From a bacterium (GTDB lineage: Bacteria; UBA6262; WVXT01): a stretch of DNA of 64,000 nucleotides. The notes under the pieces are model-generated. The model was not told where the DNA came from and did not search any database. It saw nothing but the letters and a program-made list of their open reading frames with translations. The stretch spans positions 6,344-70,343 of the forward strand of contig DATKVN010000010.1 in assembly GCA_035530055.1 (NCBI GenBank). Direction: 5' to 3'. Position numbers and translations under genes: made by a program. Positions within the stretch are counted from its first letter, which is position 1, and each line of letters starts with the position of its first letter. This document shows, piece after piece, positions 5,282 to 42,502 of the stretch.

Positions 5282-8010
5282 TTAAGCATTCTCCTTATTT
5301 TTGCCCGTGGTCTCAAATATTTGTACAACTCGCCTAACCATAATACCGAAGACGAAAAAATGATTATAATGAGTATTTCTAATAAACCTAAGGGCACAAA
5401 TTGAAATACGCCTTGGAAAAATGGGACATAAAGTACCATGGCTAACAGAAAAACAGAAGCTATAAGAGATGCGACTATAAAATTATTGCTAAAAAGACCT
5501 ATCTTGAAAATAGATCTTTTAAGTGAACGCATATTTAAAACATTAAATAATTGAGTGAATGCCATAACAGTAAATGCCCCTGTCCTTGCCTTTTCTATTC
5601 CGCTTGGCAAATAGGCATTAAAAATAATTAATGTAAAAATAACCATAATACCGGCCATGATGAGAATGAAAGGGATGATTTCTTTTGATAAAATATTTTC
5701 TTTTGCCTTTCGTGGAGGTTCTTCCAAAACGTCCTCATGACTTGGTTCAGCAGCTAAGGCAACATCGCTAACCCCATCAGTAACCAAATTGAGCCATAAC
5801 AACTGAGTAGGTAGCAATGGCAATGGAAGGCCAAGAAGCATTGTAGTTATAATACTTATACTTTCTGCAAAATTAGTAGTGATTAGAAAAGAACTTGCCT
5901 GTCTTGTATTCGTAAAAACAGTTCTTCCTTCTTCTATTGCATTCACAATAGAAGAAAAATTATCATCAGCAAGCACAATTGCGCTTGATTCCCTTGCTAC
6001 ATCAGTACCAATTATACCCATGGCAACTCCGATATCCGCTCTTTTAAGTGCAGGTGCATCATTAACCCCGTCCCCTGTCATGGCAACAATATGGCCTTGT
6101 TTCTGTAAAGTCTCAACAATTCTTAATTTCATACCAGGAGTTAACCTAGCAAAAATAGAAATATGTTTTATTGTTTCTTCAAACTCTTCTTCTGAAAGAT
6201 TTAGCAATTCTTGTTCAGTAAGAACCTCCGGACGCTTACTTTTTGTCTTTTCGCCAATCATCCCTATCTCTTTAGCGACGGCAACAGCTGTGTCCTTATG
6301 GTCTCCTGTCTTCATAATAACTCTAATACCTGCTTTCCTGGCTTTAGCAATTGCCTCCTTTACTTGGGGCCTTGGAGGATCCAGCATACCAACAACGCCA
6401 ACCAAAACAAGATCATTGACCAAATCTTCTGACAGGTTATCTGTACTGACAGGAGTTATCTTGTAAGCTAAGCCAAGAACTCTCATTGCTTTCTTTGCCA
6501 AACCTTGTATTCCGGCTAGAATTTCCTGTCTCTCTTCTTGAGTTATCTTCTTCTCTCCTTTTTCCCAAAGAATAAAAGAGGAATGGGCAAGAACAGCCTC
6601 GGGAGCTCCGATAACATAAATTTCTTTCTTCCTATCTTCTTCCACAAGTACTGAAAGCGATGCTCTATATTTCAATTCTGGATTAAATGGTAAATCATCT
6701 ATTCTTTTCTCTTTTTCCAGCAACTCTTCTTTCTTTAATCCAGCCTTTTCTGCAAGAGCAACCAAAGCAGCCTCTGTGGGGTCACCAATAATTTTATATT
6801 TTTCGTCCTCTTCTTTTACTATCCTTGCATTATTACAAACACAAGCGATATGTAAAAGTTTTGATAAACGAGAATTTTCTAATGGAGCAATGATGTTATC
6901 TTTTTGAGAAAAATCCCCTGAAGGCTTCCAGCCTTCTCCTGAAACAGTGATTTCATCTTCACCCGGCAAAATTATCTTCTCAACATTCATGGTGTTTTGC
7001 GTTAATGTTCCTGTCTTGTCGGTTGCAATAACTGTTGCTACCCCAAGAGTTTCAGTTGCCGGCAATGTTCTAACAATAGCATTTTTTTTTGCCATCCTGT
7101 AGGCACCAATAGCAAGTACTATTATCAGTACTGCGGGCAATCCTTCCGGAATTCCAGCAACAAGAGAAGCTATTGTAAAAAGAAAAATTTCAGAGAATTC
7201 AAACCCTCTAACAAAAAAACCGACCAGGAATACTATAAATGCACAGACAACCGCAATAATACCCATTTGTCTTGCCAGAATAGCTGTCTTCTTTTCAAAA
7301 TGACCCTTGACTTTTTTTATCTTTTCTATACTAGTAGCTACTTTACCAATGGCTGTTTTAATACCCGTAGATACCACAACAGCCTTAGCCTGTCCGCCGG
7401 CAACAAATGTCCCCATCCATACCATATTCTTACGGTCAGCTAAACCTGTTTTTTCAGGCAGCACTTTAACGTCTTTGTCAATAGGAAGTGACTCGCCAGT
7501 TAAAGAAGCCTCTACTGTCCTGGTGTTTTTCACTTCAAGAAGTCTTGCATCAGCAGGAATTCTGTCGCCCTCTTCTAAGAAAATAATGTCTCCGGGCACT
7601 AATTCTTTCGCATGTACTTGCAGTAATTTTCCTCCTCGGAAAACCTTTGCATAAGGCACAATCATCCTTTTTAAAGCCTGAATTGATCTCTCTGCCTTAT
7701 TCTCTTGAATGAAGCCTATTATGGCATTAATTAGAATTACAGCTAAAATTACATAAACATCAACTGCATGGCCAATGAAAAATGAAATGGCAGCAGCGGC
7801 AATAAGGATATAAATTAGAATGCTATGAAATTGCTTAAGGAAAATCAGAACAGGATGTTTAGCTTTTTTCTCAGGTATTTCGTTAGGGCCAAAATCCTGT
7901 AAGCGGGTCTTTGCTTCTTTATGCGAAAGTCCGCTTATCCCGGAAGATAATTTCTTCAGCACTTTTTCAACAGGTTCTGAATGAAATGAATTATTTAACA
8001 TCTGAATCAT
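5266..8010 (-). CDS. P-type cation-transporting ATPase (type II, Ca2+/Mg2+-like)
   Basis: 914 aa with DKTGTLT, TGDGVNDAPALK and TGES-like motifs and about 10 TM segments. The 16-bp overlap with the downstream permease suggests an operon. Confidence 0.9.
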   Translation of the reverse strand: MIQMLNNSFHSEPVEKVLKKLSSGISGLSHKEAKTRLQDFGPNEIPEKKAKHPVLIFLKQFHSILIYILIAAAAISFFIGHAVDVYVILAVILINAIIGFIQENKAERSIQALKRMIVPYAKVFRGGKLLQVHAKELVPGDIIFLEEGDRIPADARLLEVKNTRTVEASLTGESLPIDKDVKVLPEKTGLADRKNMVWMGTFVAGGQAKAVVVSTGIKTAIGKVATSIEKIKKVKGHFEKKTAILARQMGIIAVVCAFIVFLVGFFVRGFEFSEIFLFTIASLVAGIPEGLPAVLIIVLAIGAYRMAKKNAIVRTLPATETLGVATVIATDKTGTLTQNTMNVEKIILPGEDEITVSGEGWKPSGDFSQKDNIIAPLENSRLSKLLHIACVCNNARIVKEEDEKYKIIGDPTEAALVALAEKAGLKKEELLEKEKRIDDLPFNPELKYRASLSVLVEEDRKKEIYVIGAPEAVLAHSSFILWEKGEKKITQEERQEILAGIQGLAKKAMRVLGLAYKITPVSTDNLSEDLVNDLVLVGVVGMLDPPRPQVKEAIAKARKAGIRVIMKTGDHKDTAVAVAKEIGMIGEKTKSKRPEVLTEQELLNLSEEEFEETIKHISIFARLTPGMKLRIVETLQKQGHIVAMTGDGVNDAPALKRADIGVAMGIIGTDVARESSAIVLADDNFSSIVNAIEEGRTVFTNTRQASSFLITTNFAESISIITTMLLGLPLPLLPTQLLWLNLVTDGVSDVALAAEPSHEDVLEEPPRKAKENILSKEIIPFILIMAGIMVIFTLIIFNAYLPSGIEKARTGAFTVMAFTQLFNVLNMRSLKRSIFKIGLFSNNFIVASLIASVFLLAMVLYVPFFQGVFQFVPLGLLEILIIIIFSSSVLWLGELYKYLRPRAKIRRMLKWREV

Positions 8011-8292: not shown

Positions 8293-8742
8293 TTTTCTCG
8301 GATAATTTTTCTTAAGCCAATTAAGAATTATTTCTAAAAATCCTTCTGCCTCTTTAATCAACTCTACGGCTTCCAACCCTGAAATTCCACCAGCATAATC
8401 ATAATCGGTTATATTTCTCTTTGCCCTGCAGGAATCAAAATAATCTGCCAAATCATAATAATCTTTACCCATTATTTCTTTCATTGCTTGAAACACAGTA
8501 AAATGATGCCCTGCACCTTCTGGCTTATATCCCTTGCAATAAAGGAGAATTGTAGCTAATTGTAAGACAGCATTATAAGCAGTAACAAACTTTCTATCCG
8601 CAGAAAGACCCTTTACTTTTGCGTCTTTTATATCCCTCTTTACGAGTTCTAACAAATTGCCGATTTCTTTTTTAGATGTCTTATGCCGCCTTAACTTTCC
8701 TTGATTCAATAATTGCTTTAAGTGCATCATTATCTCCCACAA
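8290..8742 (-). CDS. HEPN-domain protein (second copy; partner of the wHTH-MNT at 8681-9283)
   Basis: 150 aa, homologous to the 1794-2351 protein with the same C-terminal block (CRAKRNITDYDYAGG). Its start overlaps the 3' end of the upstream MNT gene. Confidence 0.5.
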   Translation of the reverse strand: MWEIMMHLKQLLNQGKLRRHKTSKKEIGNLLELVKRDIKDAKVKGLSADRKFVTAYNAVLQLATILLYCKGYKPEGAGHHFTVFQAMKEIMGKDYYDLADYFDSCRAKRNITDYDYAGGISGLEAVELIKEAEGFLEIILNWLKKNYPRK

Positions 8743-9283
8743 TGAACATTTTCTTATCTTTTAAAACTGCCTTAAGAAAATGGTCTTTCTGTTTTAGCCT
8801 CTTTATAAATTCCTGCATAGGAAATACTGCATAGTTAATTTCACGCATTAATTCTCTCTTGGGCTTAGAAAGGATAGTTGAAAGTTCTCTTGAGGAGATA
8901 TCTCCTATTACCATTAAGTCAATATCGCTGGAAAGGCTTTCCCCTCCCTTTGCATAAGAACCATAGATAAAAGCGACTTTAATTCCATTTCCCTCAAGAT
9001 TATCTTTTAGAACTTTGGCAATCCCTACGCTCTTAAATAAGATATTCTTTAATTCTTCAAATATAGGACAGTTTCTGTTTACTTTATAATAGACGCGATT
9101 GCCCCGTGTGGTCTTTTCGATAAGACCAAGACTATGAAGTTTCTCTACCTCCCGTTGAACGCCTCTTATGGACTGGTGGGTAATTGCAGAAATTTCTCTT
9201 TGATAAAAGTTATCTCCGGGATTAAACAGGAATAATTTTAAAATCTCAACCCTTGCCTTTGAAGAAAAGAGTTTATCTATCAT
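8681..9283 (-). CDS. Winged-HTH + minimal nucleotidyltransferase fusion protein (second copy)
   Basis: wHTH (VEILKLFLFNPGDNFYQREISAITHQSIRGVQREV) plus NTase motif IYGSYAKGGESLSSDIDLMVI. The listed ORF begins with a TTG, so the start was moved to the ATG that begins MIDKLFSS. Confidence 0.65.
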   Translation of the reverse strand: MIDKLFSSKARVEILKLFLFNPGDNFYQREISAITHQSIRGVQREVEKLHSLGLIEKTTRGNRVYYKVNRNCPIFEELKNILFKSVGIAKVLKDNLEGNGIKVAFIYGSYAKGGESLSSDIDLMVIGDISSRELSTILSKPKRELMREINYAVFPMQEFIKRLKQKDHFLKAVLKDKKMFIVGDNDALKAIIESRKVKAA

Positions 9284-9303
9284 AAACTGCCTCCATATAC
9301 ATC

Positions 9304-9336
9304 TTGTAGTCAATTATATACAATTTGTAGTCAATT
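9304..9336. promoter_or_regulatory. Direct repeats TTGTAGTCAATT x2, 21 bp apart, upstream of the second wHTH-MNT gene
   Basis: Seen directly at 9304-9315 and 9325-9336. The 21-bp periodicity matches the TATCAC palindromes at the first copy. Confidence 0.4.
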
Positions 9337-9344
9337 GTCAAGCA

Positions 9345-9530
9345 AGTTCTGGGGCAAGTTCTGGGGACACAATACTTTGAAGTTCTGGGGACACAATACT
9401 TAATTATTCTTCTTTGGAACTATGGCATCTGCTCCTTCGTATAACACGCAGACTGAAGTCTGCGACTACTTTTCAAACGCAGACCAAGGTCTGCTACTCC
9501 AAACGCTCCGATGAATCGGAGCTACTCCTT
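9345..9530. repeat. Repeat cluster: three AGTTCTGGGG units, a solo RAYT-family left end (9387-9407), a conserved about 50-bp linker, and three short hairpins ending in CTACTCC
   Basis: GGGGACACAATACTTAATTAT at 9387-9407. Hairpins are GCAGACTGAAGTCTGC, GCAGACCAAGGTCTGC and CCGATGAATCGG, each followed by (G)CTACTCC. The same IR-plus-linker-plus-hairpin module occurs at 12989-13075. Confidence 0.8.
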
Positions 9531-9567
9531 ATAAAGACCTGTCTGTAATTCTTCATGATTTTTTTGA

Positions 9568-9984
9568 CTACAAATGATAATCTCCAGCGGCTTCAGGCTG
9601 ATAAAGCACTTCCAGAACCTTCAACTTTCTCAATCCTGCTGGAACTTTCCATTCAATAACATCTCCGACTCGATATCCAATTAATGCGGTTCCAATTGGT
9701 GCTAGAATTGAAATTTTGTTTTGGTCAGGATTCGCATCGTCAGGAAAGACTAACCAATAAATCATTTCTTCCCGAGTATCTAAATCTTTGAGACGAACTT
9801 TGGAATTCATTGTAATTACATCTGTAGGAATTTCCTTTGATTTAACCACCTTACTTCGATTCAACTCTCCTTCTAATTTCTCTAGATATATTTCATGTTC
9901 ACTACCAAACGTTCTGGCTTCTCTTATTAATTGTTTTAATCGTTTCTTATCCAAATCAGTAATATAAATCACTTTCTCTTTCAT
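9568..9984 (-). CDS. GreA/GreB-family protein, Rnk-like (regulator of nucleoside diphosphate kinase)
   Basis: 138 aa. The C-terminus ILAPIGTALIGYRVGDVIEWKVPAG matches the GreA/B C-terminal FKBP-like domain, and the size fits Rnk. Confidence 0.7.
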   Translation of the reverse strand: MKEKVIYITDLDKKRLKQLIREARTFGSEHEIYLEKLEGELNRSKVVKSKEIPTDVITMNSKVRLKDLDTREEMIYWLVFPDDANPDQNKISILAPIGTALIGYRVGDVIEWKVPAGLRKLKVLEVLYQPEAAGDYHL

Positions 9985-9994
9985 GTTTGCTCCT

Positions 9995-10190
9995 GGGGAG
10001 ACAATACTTAATTATTCTTCTTGGGTACTGGTTTCCCCTTTTTTAATACCTTTCCGGTTATTTCCTCAAGTTCGTTGAAAAAGTTTTTCAACATCCAATA
10101 GTCCAGTCGTGTTTGCCTATTATTATATAGAAGATTTGGCAAAATTTTCAAAAGTCCAGCATCGGGTTCAATAATTAAGTATTGTGTCCC
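9995..10190. mobile_element. MITE (about 196 bp) derived from the RAYT element: terminal IRs GGGGAGACAATACTTAATTAT / ATAATTAAGTATTGTGTCCC
   Basis: The ends are inverted copies of the RAYT-element termini. The first roughly 60 bp match the RAYT 3' coding end (TCTTCTTGGGTACTGGTTTCCCC...). It is about 85% identical to the element at 13813-14005. It fills the gap between a response-regulator stop and the rnk-like start. Confidence 0.75.
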
Positions 10191-10210
10191 TGGAATTTTT
10201 CCCCGGAATT

Positions 10211-10582
10211 TTACCTTAAAACCGCCTTTATTTTCGCAATTACTTCCGATGAGTCAAAAGGTTTTATAAGAAACGTTTTGACCCCCACCGTATTCATAAG
10301 TTTAGCGTGTTCTTTTTCCACATAGAAGCCAGTCATACCAATAATAGGAATATTTGCAGTTTTGCGAAAGCGTTTCAGTTCAGAAGCAACGTGAAACCCG
10401 CTTTTCTTTCCCAACTTAAGGTCAAGCAATATGACATCCGGTTTTATCTTAGACACCATCTTTAGGGCAGATGTGCCATCGCTAAAGACCACAGTATCAT
10501 ACCCGGTCAAATTCAACAGCTCCTGAAGTTCTTCTAAGAACTCTTTATTATCGTCAATAACCATTATCTTCTTTTTTGCCAT
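10211..10582 (-). CDS. Single-domain response regulator (CheY-like receiver)
   Basis: 123 aa with D10/D11 and the phospho-acceptor region (ILLDLKL), and conserved T and K. Confidence 0.85.
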   Translation of the reverse strand: MAKKKIMVIDDNKEFLEELQELLNLTGYDTVVFSDGTSALKMVSKIKPDVILLDLKLGKKSGFHVASELKRFRKTANIPIIGMTGFYVEKEHAKLMNTVGVKTFLIKPFDSSEVIAKIKAVLR

Positions 10583-10647
10583 TTTTATCTCTTTACTTTT
10601 TAACTTTTTTCAAATTTCTGTTCCACAATCTGAAATAGCTGTTGCTA

Positions 10648-11046
10648 TTAAGCAGGGGCCTTACCTGATAGTTCTTTAATCTTGTTAAGCAATACTTCTA
10701 TATCGAAGGGTTTAATAATAATCCCATCAGCCAGCCTTAAAATGTTTTCCTCTTTATCTCCATAGATTCGCTCTCCCTGCAAGTTCTTGCTTAAAGGTCT
10801 TCCAGTTAAAATAATAACTTTAAGCTTCTTATTTTGTCCTTTTATGCTCTCTAAAATATCAAGTCCACTTAAACCGGGCATCTTGACATCCAGAATGAGA
10901 ATATCGTAATCATATTTTTCAACGAGCCTTTTCCCTCTTAAGCCATCAAATGCCGTAGTTACACGGTAGCCCTCATCTATCAGGATTTCTGCTATTTCTT
11001 CACACAGTTCTTCATCATCATCAAGCATAAGGATTTTCTTTTTCAT
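10648..11046 (-). CDS. Single-domain response regulator (CheY-like receiver)
   Basis: 132 aa (MLDDDEEL...ILILDVKMPGLSG). It overlaps the upstream kinase gene by 4 bp (ATGA). Confidence 0.85.
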   Translation of the reverse strand: MKKKILMLDDDEELCEEIAEILIDEGYRVTTAFDGLRGKRLVEKYDYDILILDVKMPGLSGLDILESIKGQNKKLKVIILTGRPLSKNLQGERIYGDKEENILRLADGIIIKPFDIEVLLNKIKELSGKAPA

Positions 11047-12965
11047 TTTGTTTCTCTTTCGATTGGCAGACTTACGGTTATACTTGTTCCTTTGCCTTTT
11101 TTACTCTTAATGTCTATTCTTCCACTGTGAAGATTGACTAATTCATTACAAATTGTAAGCCCCAGTCCTGTCCCCTTTGATTTCCTGGTAAAGAAAGGTT
11201 CAAATACTCTTTCCAAATCTTCTTTACCTATTCCCATTCCGTTATCCTTGAAGCTTATCTCAATGGAGCCCTTTCCATCATCCCTCGCCGATATTTCTAT
11301 TTTTCCCTTTTTGTTCGAGACAGATTGGTATGCATTAGTTAAAATATTATTGAATATCTCTCTAATCTGCAAAGGGTCTGCCTCAATAAGCTTCTTTTTT
11401 CTCGATTTAAATTTTTTGACTATAGAAACATTCTGCTTATGAAATCTTCTCTTCGTAAAAGTAATACATTCATTTAGAATATCGTAAATCTGTATCTTTT
11501 CATAACTGGGTATTTTTATCCGTGAATAATTTAAAAGATTATTTATAATCTGGCCGCTTTCCAATACCTTCTTTTCTATATTGTCAAGATGTTTATCTAG
11601 TAAGGAATTTTCTCTCTTTTTCCTTATATTATATGCGGCTATCTTGATAACTCCTAATGGATTACGCAGCTCGTGGGCGACAGTTGCGGCAAGAATGCCG
11701 AGGTCGGAGAGGCGCTTTGCCTTATCTAATTCCGCTTGCGTTTTAAATAATTCGTGAGTTTTTTCGCTTATAAGCTTCTCAAAGGTCTCTTTGTCTCTTT
11801 TTAAAACTTCCTCTGCGTGTTTGCGTTCGGTTATGTCCCGGACAACTCCGAGCATACGGATTGCCTTATTGTTTTTGTCACGGATGACATTGCCCGTTTC
11901 TGAAACCCAACGGACTGTGCTGCCATCAGGCCAAACAATACGATGCTCGATATCATAGTCCCTGCCCTTTTCTATGCAGGCATTTACTGAGTCGACAACG
12001 TGCTGTCGGTCCTCAGGATGAACACATTCAAGAAATGCCTCATAAGTTCCACCGAATTCTCCCCGACCAAACCCAAACATAGGCTCTATTGTATCAGACC
12101 ACTCCAGATTACCGGTTCGAATATCCCAATCCCAGCTACCGATATTTGCAGCCCGCTGGGCAAGCGCATAACGCTCTTCACTGAGCTTTAACGCGTCTTC
12201 CGCCCGCTTGCGCCTGGAAATGTCTATCACGCCGGCAATCGCTCCGGAATAATTTCCCTTACCATCAAAAACTGGCGCTGTTTCCAGAGTGGCATAGAGA
12301 CGTATTCCATCTTTTCTCAGGAACTCAAAATCGTGTTGTTCTTCGACACCCTCTTTACGTCGATTCAGAAAGTTTTGAGCAATCTCTACACCACGTTTAT
12401 CCATAAATGAAAATAGATGTTTTCCTATCATTTCATCTGTTGTGTATCCTAACATCTCAGTCATACGAGGATTAACAAACGTGGTATAAGAATCTTTATC
12501 GATAACCCAAATCCCTTCCTGTAAATTTTCAATGAGATGGCGATATTTCTCTTCGCTATACCTCAACGACTCCTCGGATTTTTTGCGCTGGGTGATGTCT
12601 GTCCTTAATTTTTCATTTACCCTCAAAAGCTCTGCCGTTTGTCCGTTAATCTTGATTTCCAGCTCTTCGTGATATCGTTGCAATAACTTCTCCTTCTTCT
12701 TGTTCTCAGCAATGTTACGGATAACTACTGATACCGTGAACAGCCCAACAATAATGATTATGACCATTTCCACTATTGACTCATGCCAGTTAAAGGGAGT
12801 TCTTATCCCTCCCGTTAGAAGGTAAGGTAAATCCAGGATTTCATCTAGCCACGTTAAGATACAAAGCATAACAAACCCGAGGGCGACAAGTAGCCACATT
12901 CTCTTGTTCACAATCGATACTTTTGGTCTGCTGCGATTCTCTTTGATTATTTCTTTCTGTTCCAT
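11043..12965 (-). CDS. Multi-PAS sensor histidine kinase
   Basis: 640 aa with an N-terminal TM region, two or three PAS/PAC segments, the H-box HELRNPLGVIK, and the N/G1/G2 boxes (NAYQSV, DNGMGIG, GTGLGLTIC). Confidence 0.9.
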   Translation of the reverse strand: MEQKEIIKENRSRPKVSIVNKRMWLLVALGFVMLCILTWLDEILDLPYLLTGGIRTPFNWHESIVEMVIIIIVGLFTVSVVIRNIAENKKKEKLLQRYHEELEIKINGQTAELLRVNEKLRTDITQRKKSEESLRYSEEKYRHLIENLQEGIWVIDKDSYTTFVNPRMTEMLGYTTDEMIGKHLFSFMDKRGVEIAQNFLNRRKEGVEEQHDFEFLRKDGIRLYATLETAPVFDGKGNYSGAIAGVIDISRRKRAEDALKLSEERYALAQRAANIGSWDWDIRTGNLEWSDTIEPMFGFGRGEFGGTYEAFLECVHPEDRQHVVDSVNACIEKGRDYDIEHRIVWPDGSTVRWVSETGNVIRDKNNKAIRMLGVVRDITERKHAEEVLKRDKETFEKLISEKTHELFKTQAELDKAKRLSDLGILAATVAHELRNPLGVIKIAAYNIRKKRENSLLDKHLDNIEKKVLESGQIINNLLNYSRIKIPSYEKIQIYDILNECITFTKRRFHKQNVSIVKKFKSRKKKLIEADPLQIREIFNNILTNAYQSVSNKKGKIEISARDDGKGSIEISFKDNGMGIGKEDLERVFEPFFTRKSKGTGLGLTICNELVNLHSGRIDIKSKKGKGTSITVSLPIERETK

Positions 12966-12988
12966 TTTAACCTCGAATTCTCAATTCT

Positions 12989-13075
12989 GGGGACACAATA
13001 CTTAATTATTCTTCAGAATTATGACATCCGCTCTTTCGTATAACACGCAGACTGAAGTCTGCTACTCCTTCCTTT
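12989..13075. repeat. Solo RAYT-family end (12989-13009), conserved linker and GCAGACTGAAGTCTGCTACTCC hairpin
   Basis: Near-identical to the 9387-9470 module. Confidence 0.8.
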
Positions 13076-13163
13076 CCAGAAGCCTCTCCCAGCTTTACCC
13101 AACACCAGCCGTGGGGTAGTTTGTAAGGCACTCTCATATCTTCCTTTTCAGTGCTTTTTTGTC

Positions 13164-13511
13164 TCATTTTTCCAAATCCTCAAATACCTTTTGGATAAGG
13201 GGTTTAATCATAGAGACATCTTTCTTAACAACCTCCCAGAGAATTTCCAGGTCAACTCCAAAATACTCATGAACCAGCCTGTCCCTCATTCCCGCCATCT
13301 TTTTCCAAGGAACTTCAGGATATTTTTCTCTAATTCTTTTTGGGATATTTTTTGTTGCTTCTCCAATTATCTCAATGGCGCGTACCACTGCATAAATCGT
13401 TTTCTTATCTTTTTTAAATTTATTGAAATTCATACCTTCAGTAAATTTTTCAATGTCATTTATAGAATCAAGAATGTCCTGAATGTAATCTCCATACTCT
13501 CGCTTTTTCAT
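13164..13511 (-). CDS. hepT: HepT-like HEPN toxin (DUF86), type VII toxin-antitoxin
   Basis: 115 aa with the canonical R-x4-H-x-Y motif (RDRLVHEY). It overlaps the mntA stop by 4 bp. Confidence 0.85.
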
Positions 13512-13804
13512 ATATAGACGACCTCCTGTAAGATATGTCTACCGATTCTTGGTTTTAATGCCTTTTTGGAGACAAGATCAACCTTTGCTCCCAATATTTT
13601 CATTAAGTACTCTTCTAGATCCATAAATTCAAAAAGACCTATGGGTTTCTCAAACTCTACAAGAATGTCTATGTCACTCTTTTTTTTCTGTTCATCTCTT
13701 ACAAATGAGCCAAAAATCCCTATCTCTTTCAATTTAAATCTTTTTTTCAGTTCTTGCTTGTGCTTCCTAAGTATATTTTCAATCTTTCTGCGGGTCATGG
13801 CCAT
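13508..13804 (-). CDS. mntA: MntA-like minimal nucleotidyltransferase antitoxin
   Basis: [22 protein letters not shown] matches the GS..DxD NTase motif. The listed start at 13822 lies inside the MITE, so the start is more likely Met7 or Met9 (MAMTRRK) near 13804. Confidence 0.8.
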
Positions 13805-13812
13805 ATAATTCT

Positions 13813-14005
13813 GGGGACACAATACTTAATTGTCTTACTCGCTCCCCTTTTCCCTTTTTAATATTCTTCCCACTATTTCCTCAAGTTTGTTGAAAAAATT
13901 TCTCAACATCCAATAGTCCAGGCGTGCTTGCCTATTGTTATATGGAAGATTTGGCAAAATTTTCAAAAGTCCAGCATCGGGTTCAATAATTAAGTATTGT
14001 GTCCC
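13813..14005. mobile_element. MITE (about 193 bp), second copy; IRs GGGGACACAATACTTAATTGT / ATAATTAAGTATTGTGTCCC
   Basis: Same structure as the 9995-10190 element. Its right IR provides the last codons (GHNT) and the TAA stop of the adjacent B12-radical SAM gene. Its left IR abuts the mntA start. Confidence 0.75.
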
Positions 14006-15279
14006 TGGGCCTTTCCCCGGGACTTTTTGGTATGATAACGACTCCCTAAATTTAATGAACTGTATAGTATTGGGTGACGCTTATTAGCCCAGAATCTTTT
14101 TATTATTGAAGGAAAAGAATCAAATTTATGTCTCGCCCAATGAAAACCTCCCAAAAGTTGGTCAGCAGTCATTCTTAAAGGTTCAAAAACAAGTTTAACA
14201 TTATCATATTTACTCCAATCGTAGCTAAATATTCTACCTTCCTTTTGTAAATCATTAAAGATTTTTGTCCCTGGGTAGGGCGTAAGTAAAACTAATTGTG
14301 CGAAAGCCACTCTAGATTCAATAAGAAACTCAACTGTCTCTTCAAAAATAGATTGATCATCACCATCAAAACCAAAAATTAAACTTACATAAATTAAAAT
14401 ACCTACATCCAGAAACATTTTTATAGCTTCTTTGATCTCTTCTTTACTCTTTAGATTTTTGTGATAACGATTTATTTCTTTAGTAGATACAGATTCTAGA
14501 CCAATAAAGAAACTACAGCAACCAGACTCAGAAGCTAATTTTAATAACTCCCTGTCTTTTACAATATTTATAGCTGATTGCCCTACCCATTTTTTATCCA
14601 TATATTTTAATTCTTTGAAAAGTTCCCTTGCATATTGTTTATTTCCTGTAATGTTGTCGTCTAAAAACATAAGATTTTTCCCTTTAATGGTGGAAATATC
14701 TTTAATTACTTCTTTTATTGGTTTATGCCGAGGACGTGGGCCAAAAAATTTTGTTACTGAACAAAAATCACAATTATAAGGACATCCACGAGTTGTCTCT
14801 ACTGGAACGAGGTTAATAACCCCTGCTTTTCTTTTAACTAAATCTCTTCTGGGTATTACGGAATTATTTAAAAGAGGAAATTCGCTTTTATAAAATTTTT
14901 TTAGCTTATTTTCCTGTACATCTTTTATAACACTATCCCAGATATTTTCTGCTTCTCCAATTACAACAGAATCAGTATATTTTATGGATTCATCCGGTAA
15001 AGTTGTGGGATGAATACCTCCAAGAATGGTCTTTATACCCCTTTCCCTGAACATTATTGATATTTCATAAGCTCTGGGAGCGGTTGCCGTCATGGTTGTT
15101 ATGCCCACCAAATCATATTTCTTGTCAAAATTAATTTTATCCCACGGTTCCTCTACTATTTCAATTTCATGTTCTGGAGGAGTTAATCCCGCCAGTACTG
15201 GCAAAGATAATTGAGGTATATGCAAATTTTTGTGACGATGTTCATCTTTAGGACATGGTGAAATAAATAATATTTTCAT
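13990..15279 (-). CDS. B12-binding domain radical SAM protein
   Basis: 429 aa with an N-terminal cobalamin-binding Rossmann segment (DLVGITTMTATA) and the radical SAM CxxxCxxC motif (CPYNCDFC). Confidence 0.85.
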   Translation of the reverse strand: MKILFISPCPKDEHRHKNLHIPQLSLPVLAGLTPPEHEIEIVEEPWDKINFDKKYDLVGITTMTATAPRAYEISIMFRERGIKTILGGIHPTTLPDESIKYTDSVVIGEAENIWDSVIKDVQENKLKKFYKSEFPLLNNSVIPRRDLVKRKAGVINLVPVETTRGCPYNCDFCSVTKFFGPRPRHKPIKEVIKDISTIKGKNLMFLDDNITGNKQYARELFKELKYMDKKWVGQSAINIVKDRELLKLASESGCCSFFIGLESVSTKEINRYHKNLKSKEEIKEAIKMFLDVGILIYVSLIFGFDGDDQSIFEETVEFLIESRVAFAQLVLLTPYPGTKIFNDLQKEGRIFSYDWSKYDNVKLVFEPLRMTADQLLGGFHWARHKFDSFPSIIKRFWANKRHPILYSSLNLGSRYHTKKSRGKAQGHNT

Positions 15280-15296
15280 TATAAACTCCTAATTAC

Positions 15297-15367
15297 GGGG
15301 ACACAATACTTAATTATGACGCAGGCTGAAGCCTGCGGCTACCGTTTCAAACGCAGACTGAAGTCTG
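15297..15367. repeat. Solo RAYT-family end (15297-15317) followed by GCAGGCTGAAGCCTGC and GCAGACTGAAGTCTGC hairpins
   Basis: Direct sequence match to the other family members. Confidence 0.8.
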
Positions 15368-17035
15368 CTATTCCTTCAGCGCTTTGGCGTTTTTTTCATA
15401 AAATGTAGAAGGCTCATAAACCTGACCGTTAGCAAGTTTTTTTGCCTCTCTTTTCATAGCAAAGTATAGCCCTCTGCCCAATAGTGAAGCCATTATCCTG
15501 GTTTTCCAACCGAACTCCTTGTATAAATCTTGAAGAAGTGAGATGATTTTCTTCGACATAAGTTCGTCTTTCCTGTACCATTTTTTTATCGCCCAAACTG
15601 CTCCCGTATAATAATCGATGGATTTTTTAATCTCCCATTCAAAACGATTACGAATACGTGGATCCGGATGGTTTTTGTATCTTTTCCATCCTATTAGCAT
15701 GGTTCGAATCATTCGGGCAATGCTGGGACCGTTTATCTCGAAGTCCTGACGAAAGGCTCTGAGAAGAAACTCGGTTTCCTGACCATTGTAAATGTGCTTA
15801 TGGCGATAATTAAAGCGGTATTGACCGTGTCTATCTGCGGTGGGACATTCTTCTTCAGACAAAAGACTTCCTTCCTTCAGGAGCTGTTCATGAAGAGGCG
15901 TGCCAGGAGCCGGGATGTACAGCATAAACTGGTGGAAGTCCGTATCATGACTAACTGCCCAATCTATAATTTGATCAATGTTTTCCGTAGTATGGTTTTC
16001 TAAACCGATAATAGTTGACCCCATAACGCGAATGCCATGTGATTGCATATCTTGTACAAACGAGTGGGTATCTATCCCTTTAAGCTTTGCATACTGACTG
16101 TTCTCACCTTCCAGTCCTATCCATACCCAGGAAATTCCCAAACCCACCAGCTGTTTGACTGTATAAAATTTCAGAGCCTTGACAGAACTGAAAACGAACA
16201 AAGACCAACTCTTATTGTGCTGTTCCATTAATTCTAACAACCTTAATGCTCTTTTATGATGTAGAAGAAAGTTTTCATCAAGGATGAAGAAAGACCGACT
16301 CTTGAGCTCTTTTTCAATCTGACACATAATGGAAAAAAGAGAATCTCCAGTTTCATAAAAGTTTATGAATTTCCCCTTACCACCAAATAGGGCAGAAGTG
16401 GAACAAAAATTACAGCCCACCGGGCATCCTACTGATGGTATTAAAATTGCAGCGGTATTTCTTTTTGAAAGAGTTATACCAAAAATACGGCCGCCAAATG
16501 CAGAAAGAACTATTGGATGTCTTACTGAAACGTTTTCATCCTGTCCCAGGAACCTTCGAAACCAGCTGACACCTTCTCCTTTGACAATATAATCCGCATC
16601 AATGATATTATGAATATTGGGTATACTGGCAATATGCCCGCCCACAACAATCGTTGCCTTAGGTAAGTATTTGCGTATCACCTCACACATCTTTTTTGCC
16701 TTCCCGATATTGGGAATAATTGAACTAATTCCAACAATATCATAAGAATGGCTTTGGATTTCATTGGTAAAACGGTCGAGGGTAGGAAAATCTAAAAGCG
16801 TACATGGCGCATCAATGTTTGCCTGAAGCAGCATCAATCCAAATGAACGATGGAACAGGCGAAGAGAAAAAGGACCTTGCTCCCGAGTAACCTGGTTATG
16901 ATAAAGTTCCATCGGGTTAATCTTTCGGCTTCCATATTCATCGTCTTGTGCGTAGGGGCCAAATACGCTGGATAATAAAACTTTAGCTTGAGACTTAAGT
17001 GGATGTACAGGATTACTTGTGTTCATAATATTCAT
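15368..17035 (-). CDS. B12-binding domain radical SAM protein (second, longer paralogous type)
   Basis: 555 aa with a B12-binding segment (DIVGISSIIPNIGKAK...VVGGHIASIP) and CPVGCNFC. Confidence 0.85.
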   Translation of the reverse strand: MNIMNTSNPVHPLKSQAKVLLSSVFGPYAQDDEYGSRKINPMELYHNQVTREQGPFSLRLFHRSFGLMLLQANIDAPCTLLDFPTLDRFTNEIQSHSYDIVGISSIIPNIGKAKKMCEVIRKYLPKATIVVGGHIASIPNIHNIIDADYIVKGEGVSWFRRFLGQDENVSVRHPIVLSAFGGRIFGITLSKRNTAAILIPSVGCPVGCNFCSTSALFGGKGKFINFYETGDSLFSIMCQIEKELKSRSFFILDENFLLHHKRALRLLELMEQHNKSWSLFVFSSVKALKFYTVKQLVGLGISWVWIGLEGENSQYAKLKGIDTHSFVQDMQSHGIRVMGSTIIGLENHTTENIDQIIDWAVSHDTDFHQFMLYIPAPGTPLHEQLLKEGSLLSEEECPTADRHGQYRFNYRHKHIYNGQETEFLLRAFRQDFEINGPSIARMIRTMLIGWKRYKNHPDPRIRNRFEWEIKKSIDYYTGAVWAIKKWYRKDELMSKKIISLLQDLYKEFGWKTRIMASLLGRGLYFAMKREAKKLANGQVYEPSTFYEKNAKALKE

Positions 17036-21329: not shown

Positions 21330-22117
21330 GGGGACACAATACTTAATTATTATTCTTGGGTCCTGGTTTCCCCTTTTTTAATACCTTTCCGGTTATTTCC
21401 TCAAGTTTAGTAATAAATTTATCATCACCTAAAGGTCGACCGGTGCGGGCATGTTCTCTGAAGAGATTCCTATCTATGTCTCTATCGTCTTCAGCAAGAT
21501 ATGATGACCAGTCTTCTATTTCTGAAAGCATAAAGTTATCAGAAAGTAAAATATCCTTTTCTTTCAGAACATGAGCTTTCGCACTCGACCAAGGGTAATC
21601 TTCAGCCCTTTTCACTAACCCTGCTCTTACTGGATTCCGTTCAACATAACGGACAGCCGCATAAAGATACTGCTCGTCCAATGGATAAGATATAAATCGC
21701 CCCTGCCACAGATATCCCCTCCACCCTTCACGGAAATTAATCATGCGGGTATAGTATCTGTGTACCTGACCTATTCCCCTCGCTAAACTGTCTTCATTCT
21801 TGGGGACAGCTATTAAATGCACATGATTATCCATCAAACAATATGCCCAGAAAATTACACCAGCTTCTATGGCATGCTTATATAGAAGATTAATGTAGGA
21901 TTTCTTATCTTGGTCGCTGAAGAATACATTCTGAGAGCGATTGCCACGTTGGATAATATGATGAGGATAGTTAAGTATGACGATACGTGCTATTCGTGCC
22001 ATGACATAATTCTAACAAATCAAGTATCAGAAATCAATAATTAAGTATTGTATCCCGGAAACTGGTGGGACGGAACTGGTGGGGCGAAACTGGTGGATAA
22101 TTAAGTATTGTGTCCCC
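21330..22117. mobile_element. REP-associated tyrosine transposase (RAYT / IS200-like) element with 21-bp terminal inverted repeats and a duplicated right end
   Basis: Left IR GGGGACACAATACTTAATTAT (21330-21350). Right IRs at 22036-22056 (degenerate) and 22097-22117, separated by three GAACTGGTGGG units. It is preceded by the GAGTTCTGGGG x2 micro-duplication. Confidence 0.8.
21343..22002 (-). CDS. REP-associated tyrosine transposase (IS200/IS605 TnpA-like, HuH)
   Basis: 219 aa with the HuH motif (MDNHVHLIAVP) and conserved Y in the YYTRMINF region. The architecture matches RAYT/Y1 transposases. The stop codon lies inside the left IR. Confidence 0.85.
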   Translation of the reverse strand: MARIARIVILNYPHHIIQRGNRSQNVFFSDQDKKSYINLLYKHAIEAGVIFWAYCLMDNHVHLIAVPKNEDSLARGIGQVHRYYTRMINFREGWRGYLWQGRFISYPLDEQYLYAAVRYVERNPVRAGLVKRAEDYPWSSAKAHVLKEKDILLSDNFMLSEIEDWSSYLAEDDRDIDRNLFREHARTGRPLGDDKFITKLEEITGKVLKKGKPGPKNNN

Positions 22118-26391: not shown

Positions 26392-26457
26392 TAACGCAGA
26401 GCGGTCGCTCTGCGGCTACAGGTTGCTGCACAATTTGAAATTGTGCCTACAAATCCA

Positions 26458-30100: not shown

Positions 30101-30268
30101 TTGTAGCCGCAAAGCGTAAGCTTTGCCTCATTTTAGCAGAGCTATCGCTCTGCAGCTACAATTTTATGGGTAGTGTAGCCTTTTATGGTCGTAATCGTAA
30201 TATAATTGTAGTGTAGCCCTTTATGGGCGTAATGTTTACGGGCATAAAGCCCTACACTACAAAAACCA
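30101..30268. repeat. Intra-operon mosaic of hairpin modules (AGCAAAGCGTAAGCTTTGC; GCAGAGCTATCGCTCTGC; GTAGTGTAGCC...GGCTACACTAC doublets)
   Basis: It shares modules with 49179-49340, 57340-57478 and 58590-58660. Confidence 0.8.
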
Positions 30269-32610: not shown

Positions 32611-32780
32611 AAACCCAACCTTCACTTGAAAGTTGGGACTGAAGCCTTATGAATTCGGCCAACCCTCCCGCGAAGGCACTATATTGCAAACAGGTTCTCG
32701 GACTTGCTTCTGTTAAGAAGCTCACCGTTGCGGGGCAGTGTCCGGTTTTCACGGACTTCCCCTATTTACATAAAAAATAT
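32611..32780 (-). promoter_or_regulatory. Cobalamin (AdoCbl) riboswitch with terminator-type expression platform
   Basis: Minus-strand RNA reads GGGGAAGUCCGUGAAAACCGGACACUGCCCCGCAACGGUGAGC ... AAGUCCGAGAACCUGUUUGC (B12-box-like), then the terminator CCCAACUUUCAAGUGAAGGUUGGG + UUUUUU ending 22 nt before the cobU ATG. Confidence 0.8.
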
Positions 32781-32787
32781 TTAATTT

Positions 32788-32818
32788 ATTCTACTATATA
32801 TGCTCTTCCTCTGTCAAG
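32788..32818 (-). promoter_or_regulatory. Sigma70-like promoter for the riboswitch-cob/btu operon
   Basis: Minus-strand TTGACA (32813-32818), a 19-nt spacer, then TAGAAT (32788-32793). The spacer is one or two nt longer than optimal. Confidence 0.4.
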
Positions 32819-33801: not shown

Positions 33802-33876
<75 letters not shown>

Positions 33877-33935: not shown

Positions 33936-34613
33936 TCATTTGCTGAATTTATATTTAAGTATAGTTAAAATGCCTGAAAGAGCATCTTTCCAGTTGATTT
34001 TCTTTCCCTCTTTTAATGTTCTGGGAGAATATGATATGGGGATTTCATGAATCTCGTAACCTTTCTTCAGCAATTTAACTGTAACTTCGGCTTCAAATTC
34101 AAACCTTTTTGCTTGCAATGTCAAATTTTTTAGAACGCCAGTTTCAAAGGCCTTATAGCAGGTATATGAATCGGTGATCCTGGAACGGTATAATATATTG
34201 ACTAACCAGGTCAAAAACTTGTTGCCTAAAAGGTAACGCAAGTAAATAGGTTTGTTAAATTGTAGAAATCTGGAACCATAAATAATCTTGGCTTTTCTAT
34301 CCAGAATTGGTCTCATCAATTTATGGTACTCTTCGGGGTCATATTCTAAATCAGCATCCTGTATGATTGTTACCTCTCCCTCAAGGTAGGGAATCGCTGT
34401 CCTTATTGCGCTTCCCTTTCCCTGGTTTTTCGTATGGTAAATTACTCTTATATTTTCATCCCTCAATTTTTCCAATATCTCTCTCGTCCTGTCAGTGGAA
34501 CCGTCATCAACTATAACAATTTGCTTATCAATATTTACTTTTTTTACTTTGTCGATGATGTTTAGTATCGTACTTTCTTCATTAAAAACTGGCATGATAA
34601 CTGATAATTTCAC
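33936..34613 (-). CDS. Family 2 glycosyltransferase (polyprenol-phosphate sugar transferase-like)
   Basis: 225 aa with SVIMPVFNEE, DDGSTD, the DxD motif (QDADLEYD) and GSRF. Confidence 0.8.
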   Translation of the reverse strand: MKLSVIMPVFNEESTILNIIDKVKKVNIDKQIVIVDDGSTDRTREILEKLRDENIRVIYHTKNQGKGSAIRTAIPYLEGEVTIIQDADLEYDPEEYHKLMRPILDRKAKIIYGSRFLQFNKPIYLRYLLGNKFLTWLVNILYRSRITDSYTCYKAFETGVLKNLTLQAKRFEFEAEVTVKLLKKGYEIHEIPISYSPRTLKEGKKINWKDALSGILTILKYKFSK

Positions 34614-36112
34614 AACTTCTCCTCTTTTAATGTCTTCTTCAAAAACTGGAGAGCTTCCTCTTTATTTTTTAATTTTCCTCCCGCCTGGATTTCTGCTACT
34701 CTTTTCAATAACTTGCCAATCAAAGGACCTTGAGGAAGATTGAAACTTTTCATAATCTCATCTCCTCGAACAAGAGGTTTAGGCAAGATTCGTTCTTTAT
34801 GGTAGTAGTACTTGTTTAACATTTTTCTAACAGTCTGTTCATGTTTCCTTATGGACTTTCGACTTATTTCTATGGCAAACTTTTTATCTCGCTCAGGTAG
34901 AATCTTTCGATAAGAATAGCGGTCTGCCAGAGAGAGAAGAAGAGTGTCCACTCCTTCTTCAGAAAGGTCTCTAAAAAAGCGATGGATTGCTCTATCGGTC
35001 AACCGAGGAGCTTCATTCAAGTTACCGGGACGCATATGGTGCTTAACCGTCTTCTCTACAATTTTGATTGCCTTATTACTGAATTTAAGCCTCTGCATAA
35101 TTTCCATAACCAGTGAGGCTCCCTTTTCATCGTGACCAAAAAACCGAACCCTTCCCTCTTCCCTCCTTACTGTTTTTGGCTTACCGATGTCGTGAAAAAT
35201 TGCTGCCCACTTTAAAAGAGATTTTCTTTCTACTTCACCAAATATTTTCTCATCGAGATGAGCCATTATCTTGCTAGACATCCGGGGAAAGAGCTTGACC
35301 AGGTTAGCAAAAATCTCTTCCAAGGATTTGAGAGTCTCCAGGGAATGTCCCCACAGCCCTTCCCGGTGGTAATAATTTCCAGGTTTCTCCTTCATTATTT
35401 TTATTTCAGGAATGATTCTGTTCAAAAGTCCTATTCTGTGCAGTCTTTGAAGATATCGATAACCTTGAGGTGCAAAGAGAATCTTGAACAATTCGTCTCT
35501 TATTCTCTCTCTGGCTACGCTTTTAATTAAATCGACCTTCTTTTTAATTTCATCCTCTGTTTTTTTCTCTATAGCAAATTCCAAGGTGGCTGCCAGGCGA
35601 TATCCGCGGAGTAATCTCAAGGGGTCATCGTCAAAAATTTTGCGAGAAGTTCTCCTTACTATTCTCTTTTTCAAATCTCCTATCCCGCCAGAAGGGTCTA
35701 TAATTAACCTGGACAGGAGTTTCGCCCGTTTTAAGGTTTTGAGGCTTCCTTCTATTTGGTCTAATCTCACAGCCATTGCATCGATGGTGAAATCTCTTAG
35801 TAAAAGGTCTTCTTTTATTTCTTTTCCGCGCATTTGAGAGAAGTCTAAATTGAATATCTGTTTATCTTTCTTCTTGGATATTTTCTGTTTTACTACCCGA
35901 TAAATCCTGTTTTTCTCATCCAGAAGAACAAAACTGCCGCTCACTTCACTGGCGAAATTCCTGGCGAACTTCTCAGCATCTCCTTCAGGAACAAAATCAA
36001 AATCCCCGGTCTCCCTTCCCAATAGTAAATCTCTTAGGGAACCACCCACCAGAAATATTTTTCTGTTAGATTTATTTGCAAAATTTAATATCAGTTTCAG
36101 CAATTTTTCCAT
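34610..36112 (-). CDS. CCA-adding tRNA nucleotidyltransferase / poly(A) polymerase family protein with HD domain
   Basis: Pol-beta head (FLVGGSLRDLLLGRETGDFDFV), the RNA-binding region and an HD motif (AAIFHDIGKP). The start was set at MEKLLK (ATG at 36112). The listed start further upstream lies in CCTCCC/GGGAGG repeats. Confidence 0.8.
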   Translation of the reverse strand: MEKLLKLILNFANKSNRKIFLVGGSLRDLLLGRETGDFDFVPEGDAEKFARNFASEVSGSFVLLDEKNRIYRVVKQKISKKKDKQIFNLDFSQMRGKEIKEDLLLRDFTIDAMAVRLDQIEGSLKTLKRAKLLSRLIIDPSGGIGDLKKRIVRRTSRKIFDDDPLRLLRGYRLAATLEFAIEKKTEDEIKKKVDLIKSVARERIRDELFKILFAPQGYRYLQRLHRIGLLNRIIPEIKIMKEKPGNYYHREGLWGHSLETLKSLEEIFANLVKLFPRMSSKIMAHLDEKIFGEVERKSLLKWAAIFHDIGKPKTVRREEGRVRFFGHDEKGASLVMEIMQRLKFSNKAIKIVEKTVKHHMRPGNLNEAPRLTDRAIHRFFRDLSEEGVDTLLLSLADRYSYRKILPERDKKFAIEISRKSIRKHEQTVRKMLNKYYYHKERILPKPLVRGDEIMKSFNLPQGPLIGKLLKRVAEIQAGGKLKNKEEALQFLKKTLKEEKL

Positions 36113-36298
36113 TTCAGTGCATGCGTTAGAAGGTCTCTGAAAATTCTGGACTCCTTGCGAATCGCGTAGGGGCGACCCTTGTGGTCGCCCGAACCTCCCT
36201 TTCGGGAGGACTCCACAAATTCTGGATTCCTTGCGAGAGCAAGGTTTTTTCCTCCCTCCCTTTCGGGAGGACTCCAAACTCCGATTTTGATAGGGCTC
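36113..36298. repeat. Hairpin-module mosaic (GCGACCCTTGTGGTCGCC; two CCTCCCTTTCGGGAGGACTCC units; CCTTGCGAGAGCAAGG)
   Basis: Members of the CCTCCC/GGGAGG family. Confidence 0.8.
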
Positions 36299-41757: not shown

Positions 41758-41809
41758 CTTTTAGTATTTGGTAGCTCCGATTCATCGGAGCGTCAAGGAG
41801 TAGCAGACT

Positions 41810-42334: not shown

Positions 42335-42502
42335 TTTTTTCCAGATTATGCTGGCTAAACCTGTAACAGCGGTTTATTATTCGGTAGCCGCAACCTTTAG
42401 GTTGCGTGGAATATGCGCAGGCTAAAGCCTGCGACTACCTAAGAGGATACAAAATTGTTGACAATTGAAAATATTTTCTATATCATATCCCCGTGATATA
42501 AA

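Follow-up and report, generated by a model that had tools for sequence, protein, structure and literature searches.

The stretch of DNA analysed here, 64 kb of contig DATKVN010000010.1 taken as a whole (the window), has a G+C content of ~40% and carries nearly all of its genes on the - strand, which is the G-rich strand along its entire length. It contains 22 copies of a family of short hairpin repeats (20 intact, one truncated and one decayed). We interpret these hairpins as canonical GTAG-tagged repetitive extragenic palindromes (REPs) that form clusters similar to bacterial interspersed mosaic elements (BIMEs) and that are associated with a REP-associated tyrosine transposase (RAYT). The probability assigned to this interpretation is roughly 0.85.

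On the + strand, the copies are laid out either as (A)CGC-stem-loop-stem-GC followed by TACTCC or as CGC...GCG followed by G/A-CTACC. Read from the opposite strand, every window copy consists of GG(A)GTAG, the hairpin and GT (for example GGAGTAGCAGACTTCAGTCTGCGT). The hairpin has a perfect stem of 6-8 bp, which opens and closes with G-C/C-G pairs, and a loop of 2-4 nt; the 20 intact copies have a perfect 7-8 bp stem with a 2 nt loop or, equivalently, 6-7 bp with a 4 nt loop. The stem types found in the window are GCAGAC, GCAGACC, GCAGAGC, GCGAAAC, GCTCCGAT, CGCAGGC and CGCAACC. The tag that precedes each intact copy is GGAGTAG or GGTAG(C/T), with its last G serving as the first base of the stem or lying 1 nt ahead of it; the tag is mutated at 15351 and 54666, and a tag variant is present at 52026. 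Each hairpin taken alone is predicted to fold as single-stranded DNA with an energy of -5.3 to -8.4 kcal/mol. The individual copies are as follows (loci outside the window are given L numbers).

9445-9469 (-): stem CGCAGAC, short tag GTAGT, - strand GTAGTCGCAGACTTCAGTCTGCGTG; first of three head-to-tail copies downstream of the greA-like gene 9568-9984 (-) and present too in the strain variants L001-L008
9477-9500 (-): stem GCAGACC, reads GGAGTAGCAGACCTTGGTCTGCGT
9503-9528 (-): 8 bp stem GCTCCGAT, reads GGAGTAGCTCCGATTCATCGGAGCGT; DNA hairpin -7.7 kcal/mol
13045-13068 (-): stem GCAGAC, the example given above; 37 nt inside the solo 21 nt inverted repeat 12989-13009
15318-15343 (-): stem CGCAGGC, tag GGTAGC; 2 nt from the solo 21 nt inverted repeat 15297-15317
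15351-15374 (-): stem GCAGAC, mutated tag GGAATAG; relatives have other REP bodies here with the same boundary
41770-41793 (+): stem GCTCCGAT, tag GGTAG, + strand GGTAGCTCCGATTCATCGGAGCGT; missing at the orthologous site in L174
41797-41820 (+): stem GCAGAC, + strand GGAGTAGCAGACTTTAGTCTGCGT
42383-42407 (+): stem CGCAACC, tag GGTAGC; inverted pair with 42414-42439, tags outside
42414-42439 (-): stem CGCAGGC, tag GGTAGT
47505-47530 (-): GCTCCGAT type, pair 2 being a single T·G mismatch; + strand GTTCCGATGGATCGGAGC followed by TACTCC
51931-51956 (-): stem CGCAGGC; begins a group of four REPs that lie close upstream of the RNase P RNA gene 51630-51919 (-)
51968-51993 (+): stem CGCAACC, tag GGTAGT; inverted relative to 51931-51956, tags inside
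51998-52021 (-): stem GCAGAC; the sole one of the four that is kept at the orthologous L090 site, with a different loop
52026-52051 (-): stem GCTCCGAT, tag variant GTAGTAG
54548-54571 (-): stem GCAGACC; starts the cluster adjoining tRNA-Val (54450-54521, -)
54582-54605 (+): stem GCGAAAC, reads GGAGTAGCGAAACTTGTTTCGCGT
54610-54627 (-): truncated copy GGAGTAGCAGACCTTGTT, the product of a 56 bp tandem duplication of the preceding pair
54638-54661 (+): stem GCGAAAC, duplicate copy
54666-54690 (-): decayed copy, stem GCAGAG, mutated tag GAATAAG and one inner mismatch
61614-61637 (+): stem GCGAAAC; inverted pair with 61643-61666, tags outside
61643-61666 (-): stem GCAGAGC, reads GGAGTAGCAGAGCTTGCTCTGCGT

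The CGCAGGC/CGCAACC pairing occurs twice (42383-42439 and 51931-51993), and the GCGAAAC and GCAGAGC types are paired through the same linker at 54638-54690 and 61614-61666; this linker, TAATAA (61638-61642 in the 61614/61643 pair), recurs at 54662-54665. Three window genes end inside a REP, with stops at 15368-15370, 41810-41812 and 52048-52050. Gene 15368-17035 (-) uses the TAG of the tag as its stop codon, gene 52048-52650 (-) the outer TAG of its tag, and gene 41810-42334 (-) a TAA in the REP loop (- strand of 41797-41820). The stop within the tag at 15368 is kept in all five relatives despite the differing REP body.

In published sequence definitions (PMC3733652, PMC6006769), a REP has a loop of 2-5 nt on a basal stem without unpaired bases, for which PMC6006769 sets 7-20 nt (RNAMotif rule) and PMC3733652 6-13 bp, and the tetranucleotide GT[AG]G stands 5' of the foot of the hairpin at a distance of 0-2 nt. 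Judged by sequence, the window copies qualify as GTAG-REPs in every feature, namely the hairpin, the GTAG tag and the many dispersed extragenic copies. This bears out an earlier sequence-only reading of the window, which had taken the hairpins for structured repeats akin to a BIME/REP system and whose nine loci and seven quoted hairpins are all present as described. The extents given there require correction. The hairpin quoted as CCGAT-GA-ATCGG is present, but its true stem is 8 bp long (GCTCCGAT-GA-ATCGGAGC). Of the span 9387-9530, the first 60 bases (9387-9446) hold no hairpin but a 21 nt repeat, GGGGACACAATACTTAATTAT, and a spacer. Finally, the module described as a hairpin with a CTAC(T)CC tag is part of the longer unit laid out above, (A)CGC...GC with TACTCC or G/A-CTACC.

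The abundance of the hairpins was compared with chance in the window and in a larger set. In the window, CTACTCC occurs 17 times (5.85 ± 2.24 expected) and perfect hairpins ending on the C of CTAC occur 12 times, compared with an average of 0.47 in 30 dinucleotide-preserving shuffles, none of which exceeded 2. Metagenome contigs were scanned using one stem type with a free loop as bait, which yielded 119 loci (~0.87 Mb) and inflates the counts of that stem type. These loci, the window and the syntenic genome locus L026 were deduplicated to give a tag-anchored census set of 0.95 Mb; this census replaced a mismatch-tolerant hairpin scan of our own that was too noisy. At 261 of the 427 CTACTCC sites in the tag-only census, six or more consecutive perfect pairs lie immediately upstream. 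By comparison, four 7-mers matched in composition gave 0-1 hairpin sites among 86-213 each, and the 144 tag sites without pairing correspond to the background rate of these control words.

The census comprises 40 distinct perfect hairpins with ~22 stems. The stems that were recovered without bait are GCTCCGAT, GCAGGTT, GCGAAAC, GCGAAGC, GCAGAGC, GCGGAGC, GCGAGAC, GCGGAC, GCCCCGAT, GTCCCGAT, GCACGAT, GCACCGC, GCGGGTT and others. Covariation was analysed in an alignment (A1) of 34 distinct 16 nt variants, including those with one or two mismatches. Standard pairs occupy 94.5% of the alignment cells, compared with 20-45% in slid registers. Double-sided changes were found in 44 cells versus 11.2 ± 2.6 in shuffles (0 of 500 reached 44), and five of the seven pairs covary. 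Perfect copies outnumber one-mismatch copies (~27) by ~10:1. Several of the latter are one-step intermediates, GTCCCGAT/ATCGGGGC standing between the perfect types GCCCCGAT and GTCCCGAT, GCAGGC/GTCTGC between GCAGAC and GCAGGC, and GCAGGTT/AACCCGC between GCAGGTT and GCGGGTT. The mismatched variants were each seen once, apart from a few within-locus tandem duplicates; several perfect types recur at many loci.

The claim made from the window, that selection on pairing keeps the stems paired, is supported: the covariation is significant and, in the tag-anchored set, compensatory change is in excess. Most GTAG families have been found to divide into subfamilies with alternative complementary stem residues (Di Nocera 2013, PMC3733652), so that stem covariation is a known property of the class. 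The further argument, that such covariation marks a structured element rather than a selfish repeat, poses a false choice, since a RAYT is thought to spread the REPs and needs the hairpin to do so. Paired stems are the expected output of a mobile-element filter and are therefore no proof of a host function.

The copies lie largely between genes. Crude open reading frame (ORF) calls take up 88% of the DNA but contain no more than 46 of the 267 copies. Co-directional genes border 157 of the 173 intergenic copies, which follow the upstream stop at a median distance of 43 nt; in this set of 157 the sense strand reads GTAG-first in 110 cases and the reverse in 47. Close neighbour pairs (n = 92) are arranged head to tail in 56 cases, with tags outside in 30 and with tags inside in six, and all 36 inverted pairs join different stems.

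The REP content of orthologous sites turns over between relatives. At 15297-15374, the window and four relatives (flanking genes ~87-95% identical to the window) have five different contents; each is enclosed by the same 21 nt repeat on one side and the end of the same gene on the other, and the right boundary does not vary.

Window: CGCAGGC + GCAGAC
L026: GCAGAC + GCTCCGAT
L120: spacer + GCAGAC
L161: GCTCCGAT alone
L201: GCAGAC + GCTGCGAT

Largely different REP sets are also found in contigs ~85% identical in genes at the spacers 41758-41809 and 42335-42502 and in the region upstream of the RNase P RNA gene. In strain variants of the 9445-9528 triplet, one stem carries an uncompensated G-to-A change and a rearrangement breakpoint lies at the adjoining 21-mer. 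Since REP sets differ between relatives at orthologous sites, they behave as mobile or recombining repeats and not as site-specific regulatory structures. The four REPs upstream of the RNase P RNA gene (Rfam score 168.5 bits) fill the 130 bases immediately adjoining it, and L090 shares one only.

Genes for canonical RAYTs (177-178 residues) were identified near the same REPs in the flanks of the REP-baited metagenome loci.

L133: 802-1335
L162: 4954-5487
L124: 6463-6999

These three genes score 92-101 bits against the NCBI curated model NF047646, 'REP-associated tyrosine transposase' (cut-off 80), and their products carry the HUH (NHYH) and Tyr (FNYIHHN) motifs. GGAGTAG-hairpins lie upstream and hairpin-CTA(A/C)TCC copies downstream, i.e. 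the genes have inverted REPs on both sides. This linkage supports the pointer to a RAYT in the sequence-only reading. The L124 RAYT shares 42% identity with the other two; its flanking REPs combine the same tag with GCGGAGC/GCGAAGC stems. Downstream of the RAYT at L133 802-1335 (L133 1-800), at least nine perfect tandem copies of the 26 nt unit GCGCAGACTAAAGTCTGCTAATCCTAAG are found, the tag of which is CTAATCC (GGATTAG) and not CTACTCC. A second RAYT in L133 (6061-6498; 84.6 bits on NF047646) is flanked by GTAGGGGYGRGC...CCC hairpins, a family that has two copies in the window. In seven samples, the RAYT protein P0002 occupies one syntenic site, bordered each time by the same pair of housekeeping genes, which fits the description of RAYTs as single-copy and vertically inherited (PMC5581495).

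By analogy with characterized systems, the stems most likely stay paired because a RAYT recognizes the folded single-stranded hairpin together with the GTAG guide. RAYT (TnpAREP) binds the REP as a folded single-stranded DNA hairpin, uses the 5' GTAG in recognition and in the choice of cleavage site, and cuts at dinucleotides beside the hairpin (PMC8266576, PMC3479197). For group 3 (perfect-palindrome) REPs, a stem mismatch reduces or abolishes cleavage and swapping the stem to its complement has a moderate effect (PMC8266576). On the basis of this published biochemistry, the RAYT would bind the present REPs as hairpins folded in single-stranded DNA, read the 5' GTAG as a guide or recognition motif, and cleave and rejoin beside the hairpin, with the result that REPs would be spread or rearranged. 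The enzyme would thus filter on tag and pairing: a copy with a broken stem would be a poor substrate, would stop spreading and would decay, and compensated variants would found new subfamilies. If only pairing-restoring variants found subfamilies, many stems, all paired and all with one tag, are to be expected.

Several points weigh against the interpretation of the hairpins as RAYT-associated REPs. No canonical RAYT is encoded in the window, and the window genome's own RAYT was not found (a homologue search and four contig look-ups returned other samples only); the putative RAYT link rests on relatives that share the REPs. The metagenome loci were baited with one stem type, with the other stems coming unbaited from the flanks, and the covariation alignment kept tag-bearing copies with at most two mismatches only. 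Copy orientation is biased 70:30 with respect to transcription, which would be compatible with an RNA role or an effect of the replication strand as well.

Among known systems, the repeats resemble the GTAG-REP/RAYT 'REPtrons' of group 3 (Stenotrophomonas maltophilia, Marinomonas; Di Nocera 2013, PMC3733652; Corneloup 2021, PMC8266576) in the GTAG that stands 5' at the base of a short perfect hairpin (loop 2-4 nt), in their subfamilies with alternative complementary stem residues, in their extragenic position (mostly after genes), in a RAYT gene with inverted REP flanks (here in related contigs) and in that one genome can contain several REP families with a separate RAYT for each (here L133 has two). 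They differ in their host, an uncultured lineage with Omnitrophota/Elusimicrobiota as its nearest labelled relatives, outside the phyla listed in those surveys, in the length of the conserved tag (7 nt, GGAGTAG, with its last G as the first stem base), in the unusually wide set of stems under one tag and in the predominance of head-to-tail neighbours (56/92), head-to-tail dimers having been reported as rare in most families. As in the E. coli BIMEs (mosaics of Y and Z palindromic units), mixed-type clusters often alternate in orientation and show recurring pairings and a linker, but here the stems are perfect with no conserved bulge and head-to-tail arrays are frequent. The resemblance to a BIME, defined by alternately oriented units of distinct types with conserved linkers between them, is partial: mixed-type clusters, recurring pairings and one recurring linker are present, but direct arrays are commoner.

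REPINs (Bertels & Rainey 2011, PMC3116915) are likewise REP-derived repeats with a single-copy RAYT, in which a doublet of mutually complementary inverted REPs forms one long hairpin and replicates as a unit. Here, 30 tags-outside inverted doublets are present; unlike in REPINs, the REPs of such a doublet never share a stem (0/30), so that no single long hairpin can form, and the repeated unit appears to be the single REP. The ends of IS200/IS605 elements (IS608, ISDra2) have a hairpin with a 5' guide tetranucleotide for a Y1 HUH enzyme acting on single-stranded DNA, and the enzyme is homologous (PF01797). Here, in contrast, the hairpins do not enclose a transposase, and the unit, present in high copy number, measures ~24 nt.

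A reading that goes beyond a conventional REP system, and which we put forward only tentatively as being rather improbable, treats the REPs as tag-bounded cassettes in which bodies are swapped at a fixed tag boundary, new copies are inserted adjacent to tags and fusions arise with the ends of an unrelated Y1 element (a TIRYT, see below). One 7 nt tag is common to some twenty stems, and bodies may be exchanged at this fixed boundary at orthologous sites. New units may insert beside an existing tag, building the head-to-tail arrays, in a manner similar to the guide-complementary target choice of IS608. Fusion of REPs with TIRYT ends may account for chimeric repeat-plus-REP units at several sites. 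If true, the cassettes would be a direct natural record of RAYT insertion-site choice and of cross-talk between two Y1 systems.

It is unlikely that the REPs are primarily host-selected RNA 3' stem-loops (transcript stabilizing, operon punctuating or terminating), with their covariation reflecting RNA pairing. The location of most copies shortly past the upstream stop between co-directional genes agrees with such a role, as do the 110 of 157 copies that are GTAG-first on the sense strand, the good fold of the cluster 9430-9567 as RNA (z = -3.5) and the reports of E. coli REPs as mRNA-stabilizing (background cited in PMC6006769 and PMC3733652). However, 30% of the copies have the opposite orientation and inverted pairs are common. 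Of the single mismatches read from the listed sequences, eight are G·T on the strand that reads CTACTCC, 12 are G·T on its complement and six are neither; the G·T mismatches are thus about equal on both strands and do not reveal the strand-specific wobble tolerance that an RNA element should show. No T-run follows the stem on the sense (-) strand at any REP in 9000-16000 (two weak antisense matches were found), and a reading of the hairpins as intrinsic terminators is therefore unsupported in this scanned stretch. Rfam 15 at the gathering score gave no match at the hairpin loci, the matches in the window being the RNase P RNA, two tRNAs and a cobalamin riboswitch. Relatives that are 85-95% identical in the flanking genes have different modules or none at the orthologous spacers, and the invariant unpaired 7 nt tag has no obvious RNA role, yet matches the RAYT guide motif.

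The sequence-only reading had left the structure as either RNA or cruciform DNA. The DNA alternative fits better, in the form of single-stranded DNA, and RNA fits less well: single-stranded DNA is favoured by the presence of both orientations, by G·T mismatches on either strand and by the lack of a terminator-like tail in 9000-16000. RNA-level selection is unlikely to be the main cause, and transcript effects may arise as a by-product.

The window itself encodes one Y1-type HUH protein, which belongs to an element bounded by the 21 nt repeat noted above.

21343-22002 (-): gene for the Y1-type protein (219 residues; PF01797, E = 4e-10; motif YVERNPVRAGLV)
21330 (+) and 22097 (-): inverted 21-mers flanking the gene, which REPs do not; extra copy at 22037 (-)
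21330-22117: the whole element, with short tandem 12-mers adjoining its repeats
9387, 12989 and 15297: the three solo 21-mers
1706-1779, 9995-10191 and 13813-14006: gene-less inverted 21-mer pairs

TIRYTs (TnpAY1 subclass 2.1) have the terminal inverted repeat consensus GGGG[AT][CG]A[CG] and are described as being without REPs (PMC6006769). The repeat of the element (GGGGACAC...) fits this consensus, so that the gene with its inverted repeats would be assigned to the TIRYTs (subclass 2.1), an assignment that applies to the gene and not to the hairpins. As a candidate for the RAYT of the REPs, this gene was rejected owing to its inverted-repeat flanks and its score of 62.3 bits on NF047646, below the cut-off of 80.

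That the REPs are internal or end structures of this element, or are mobilized by it and its miniature derivatives, is very improbable. The protein does carry the Y1 domain and the YVERNPVRAGLV motif, all three solo 21-mers in the window have a REP in the same orientation within 2-40 nt, and 13 of the 47 21-mer copies from all loci are accompanied on their inner side by a REP no more than 80 nt away, compared with ~2.3% expected. Against this stand the 21-mer flanks of the gene, its score below the RAYT cut-off, the presence of these REPs at only one of 80 homologue loci in other genomes (the syntenic L026), the fit of the repeat to a class described as lacking REPs (PMC6006769) and the existence of separate canonical RAYTs flanked by these very REPs.

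In the pooled loci, nine of 15 solo 21-mers have an inner-side REP in the same orientation within 80 nt. A composite of the 21-mer, a ~39 nt spacer and a GCAGAC REP recurs at 9387, at 12989 and in L120; such composites may be chimeric mobile units or REP-targeted insertions. Two gene-less 21-mer pairs of ~200 bp keep the 3' end of the transposase gene region and thus look like internally deleted derivatives similar to miniature inverted-repeat transposable elements. Gene-less pairs flank the greA-like gene and a HepT/MNT toxin-antitoxin pair, and the greA-like gene is located elsewhere in L026.

Chance palindromes, or neutrally decaying copies of one repeat without a pairing constraint, have nothing in their favour but the shortness of each element and are already refuted by the near absence of tagged hairpins in shuffles and control 7-mers, by the ~22 stems that all stay paired and by the ~10:1 ratio of perfect to one-mismatch copies.

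The host probably represents an uncultured lineage near Omnitrophota. The closest homologues of its CCA-adding enzyme (71-97% identity) are all from unlabelled metagenome-assembled genomes (MAGs), and the next (≤50%) bear Elusimicrobia or Omnitrophota labels. Omnitrophota MAGs account for most homologues of the Y1 gene. A TonB-dependent receptor is encoded in the window, and the label 'Clostridia bacterium' of the syntenic L026 looks doubtful. The small dispersed repeats (SDR) of Nostocaceae, suggested by the 40% G+C content and the repeat style, were rejected as homologues and synteny led to uncultured Omnitrophota-like MAGs. A literature search linked RAYTs or REPs with the Omnitrophota-like group only through incidental mentions.

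With the present copies, the known range of the GTAG-REP/RAYT system would come to include an uncultured lineage that lies beyond the phyla of the surveys to date. This is no new biology, as the class, the covariation and the RAYT link have already been described; the broad covarying stem set under one tag is nevertheless a clean natural data set on what a RAYT reads in a REP. For annotation, REPs explain assembly breaks and strain rearrangements in such MAGs, as well as the three window gene ends. The more interesting residue lies in the cassette-like replacement of bodies at tag boundaries, the head-to-tail arrays and the association with TIRYT ends.

Three hairpin families related to the main REP family are also present in the window. 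The second tagged family has the layout (T)GTAGC, 0-2 nt and GCA(A/G)AGC-loop-GCT(T/C)TGC (...GCTACA when read from the other strand), with a compensatory A-T/G-C change again in the stem. The third, TCGCGTAGGGGCGACC-loop-GGTCGCCC, matches the REPs flanking the L133 RAYT 6061-6498, and similar hairpins occur in the unrelated MAG loci L044, L055 and L082.

26393-26420, 30103-30128, 30134-30159, 47433-47458, 49310-49336 and 57350-57377: second family, six copies
36162-36192 (+) and 49167-49197 (-): third family
47472-47492 (-) and 61584-61604 (-): GGAGT with CCTTGC-GAAA-GCAAGG, two copies
26426-26455 (-): TGTAG with GCACAATT-loop-AATTGTGC

The 36162 copy lies inside ORF 34610-36277 because this ORF was probably called ~50 codons too long (its homologues have ~500 residues). 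RAYT homologues of only 53% identity (L217, L222) are flanked by GGAGT(G/T)-hairpins, and GGAGT may therefore be the older core of the tag.

The structured RNAs other than RNase P RNA are the cobalamin riboswitch at 32673-32808 (-), tRNA-Gly(CCC) at 33802-33876 (-) and tRNA-Val(CAC) at 54450-54521 (-), with the REP cluster 54548-54690 beginning 27 nt from the last of these. Directly downstream of the REP/repeat cluster that starts at 9387, a perfect sigma-70 consensus is found at 9313-9341 (-) (TTGACA-17-TATAAT, 12/12), just upstream of the nucleotidyltransferase-like gene 8681-9313.

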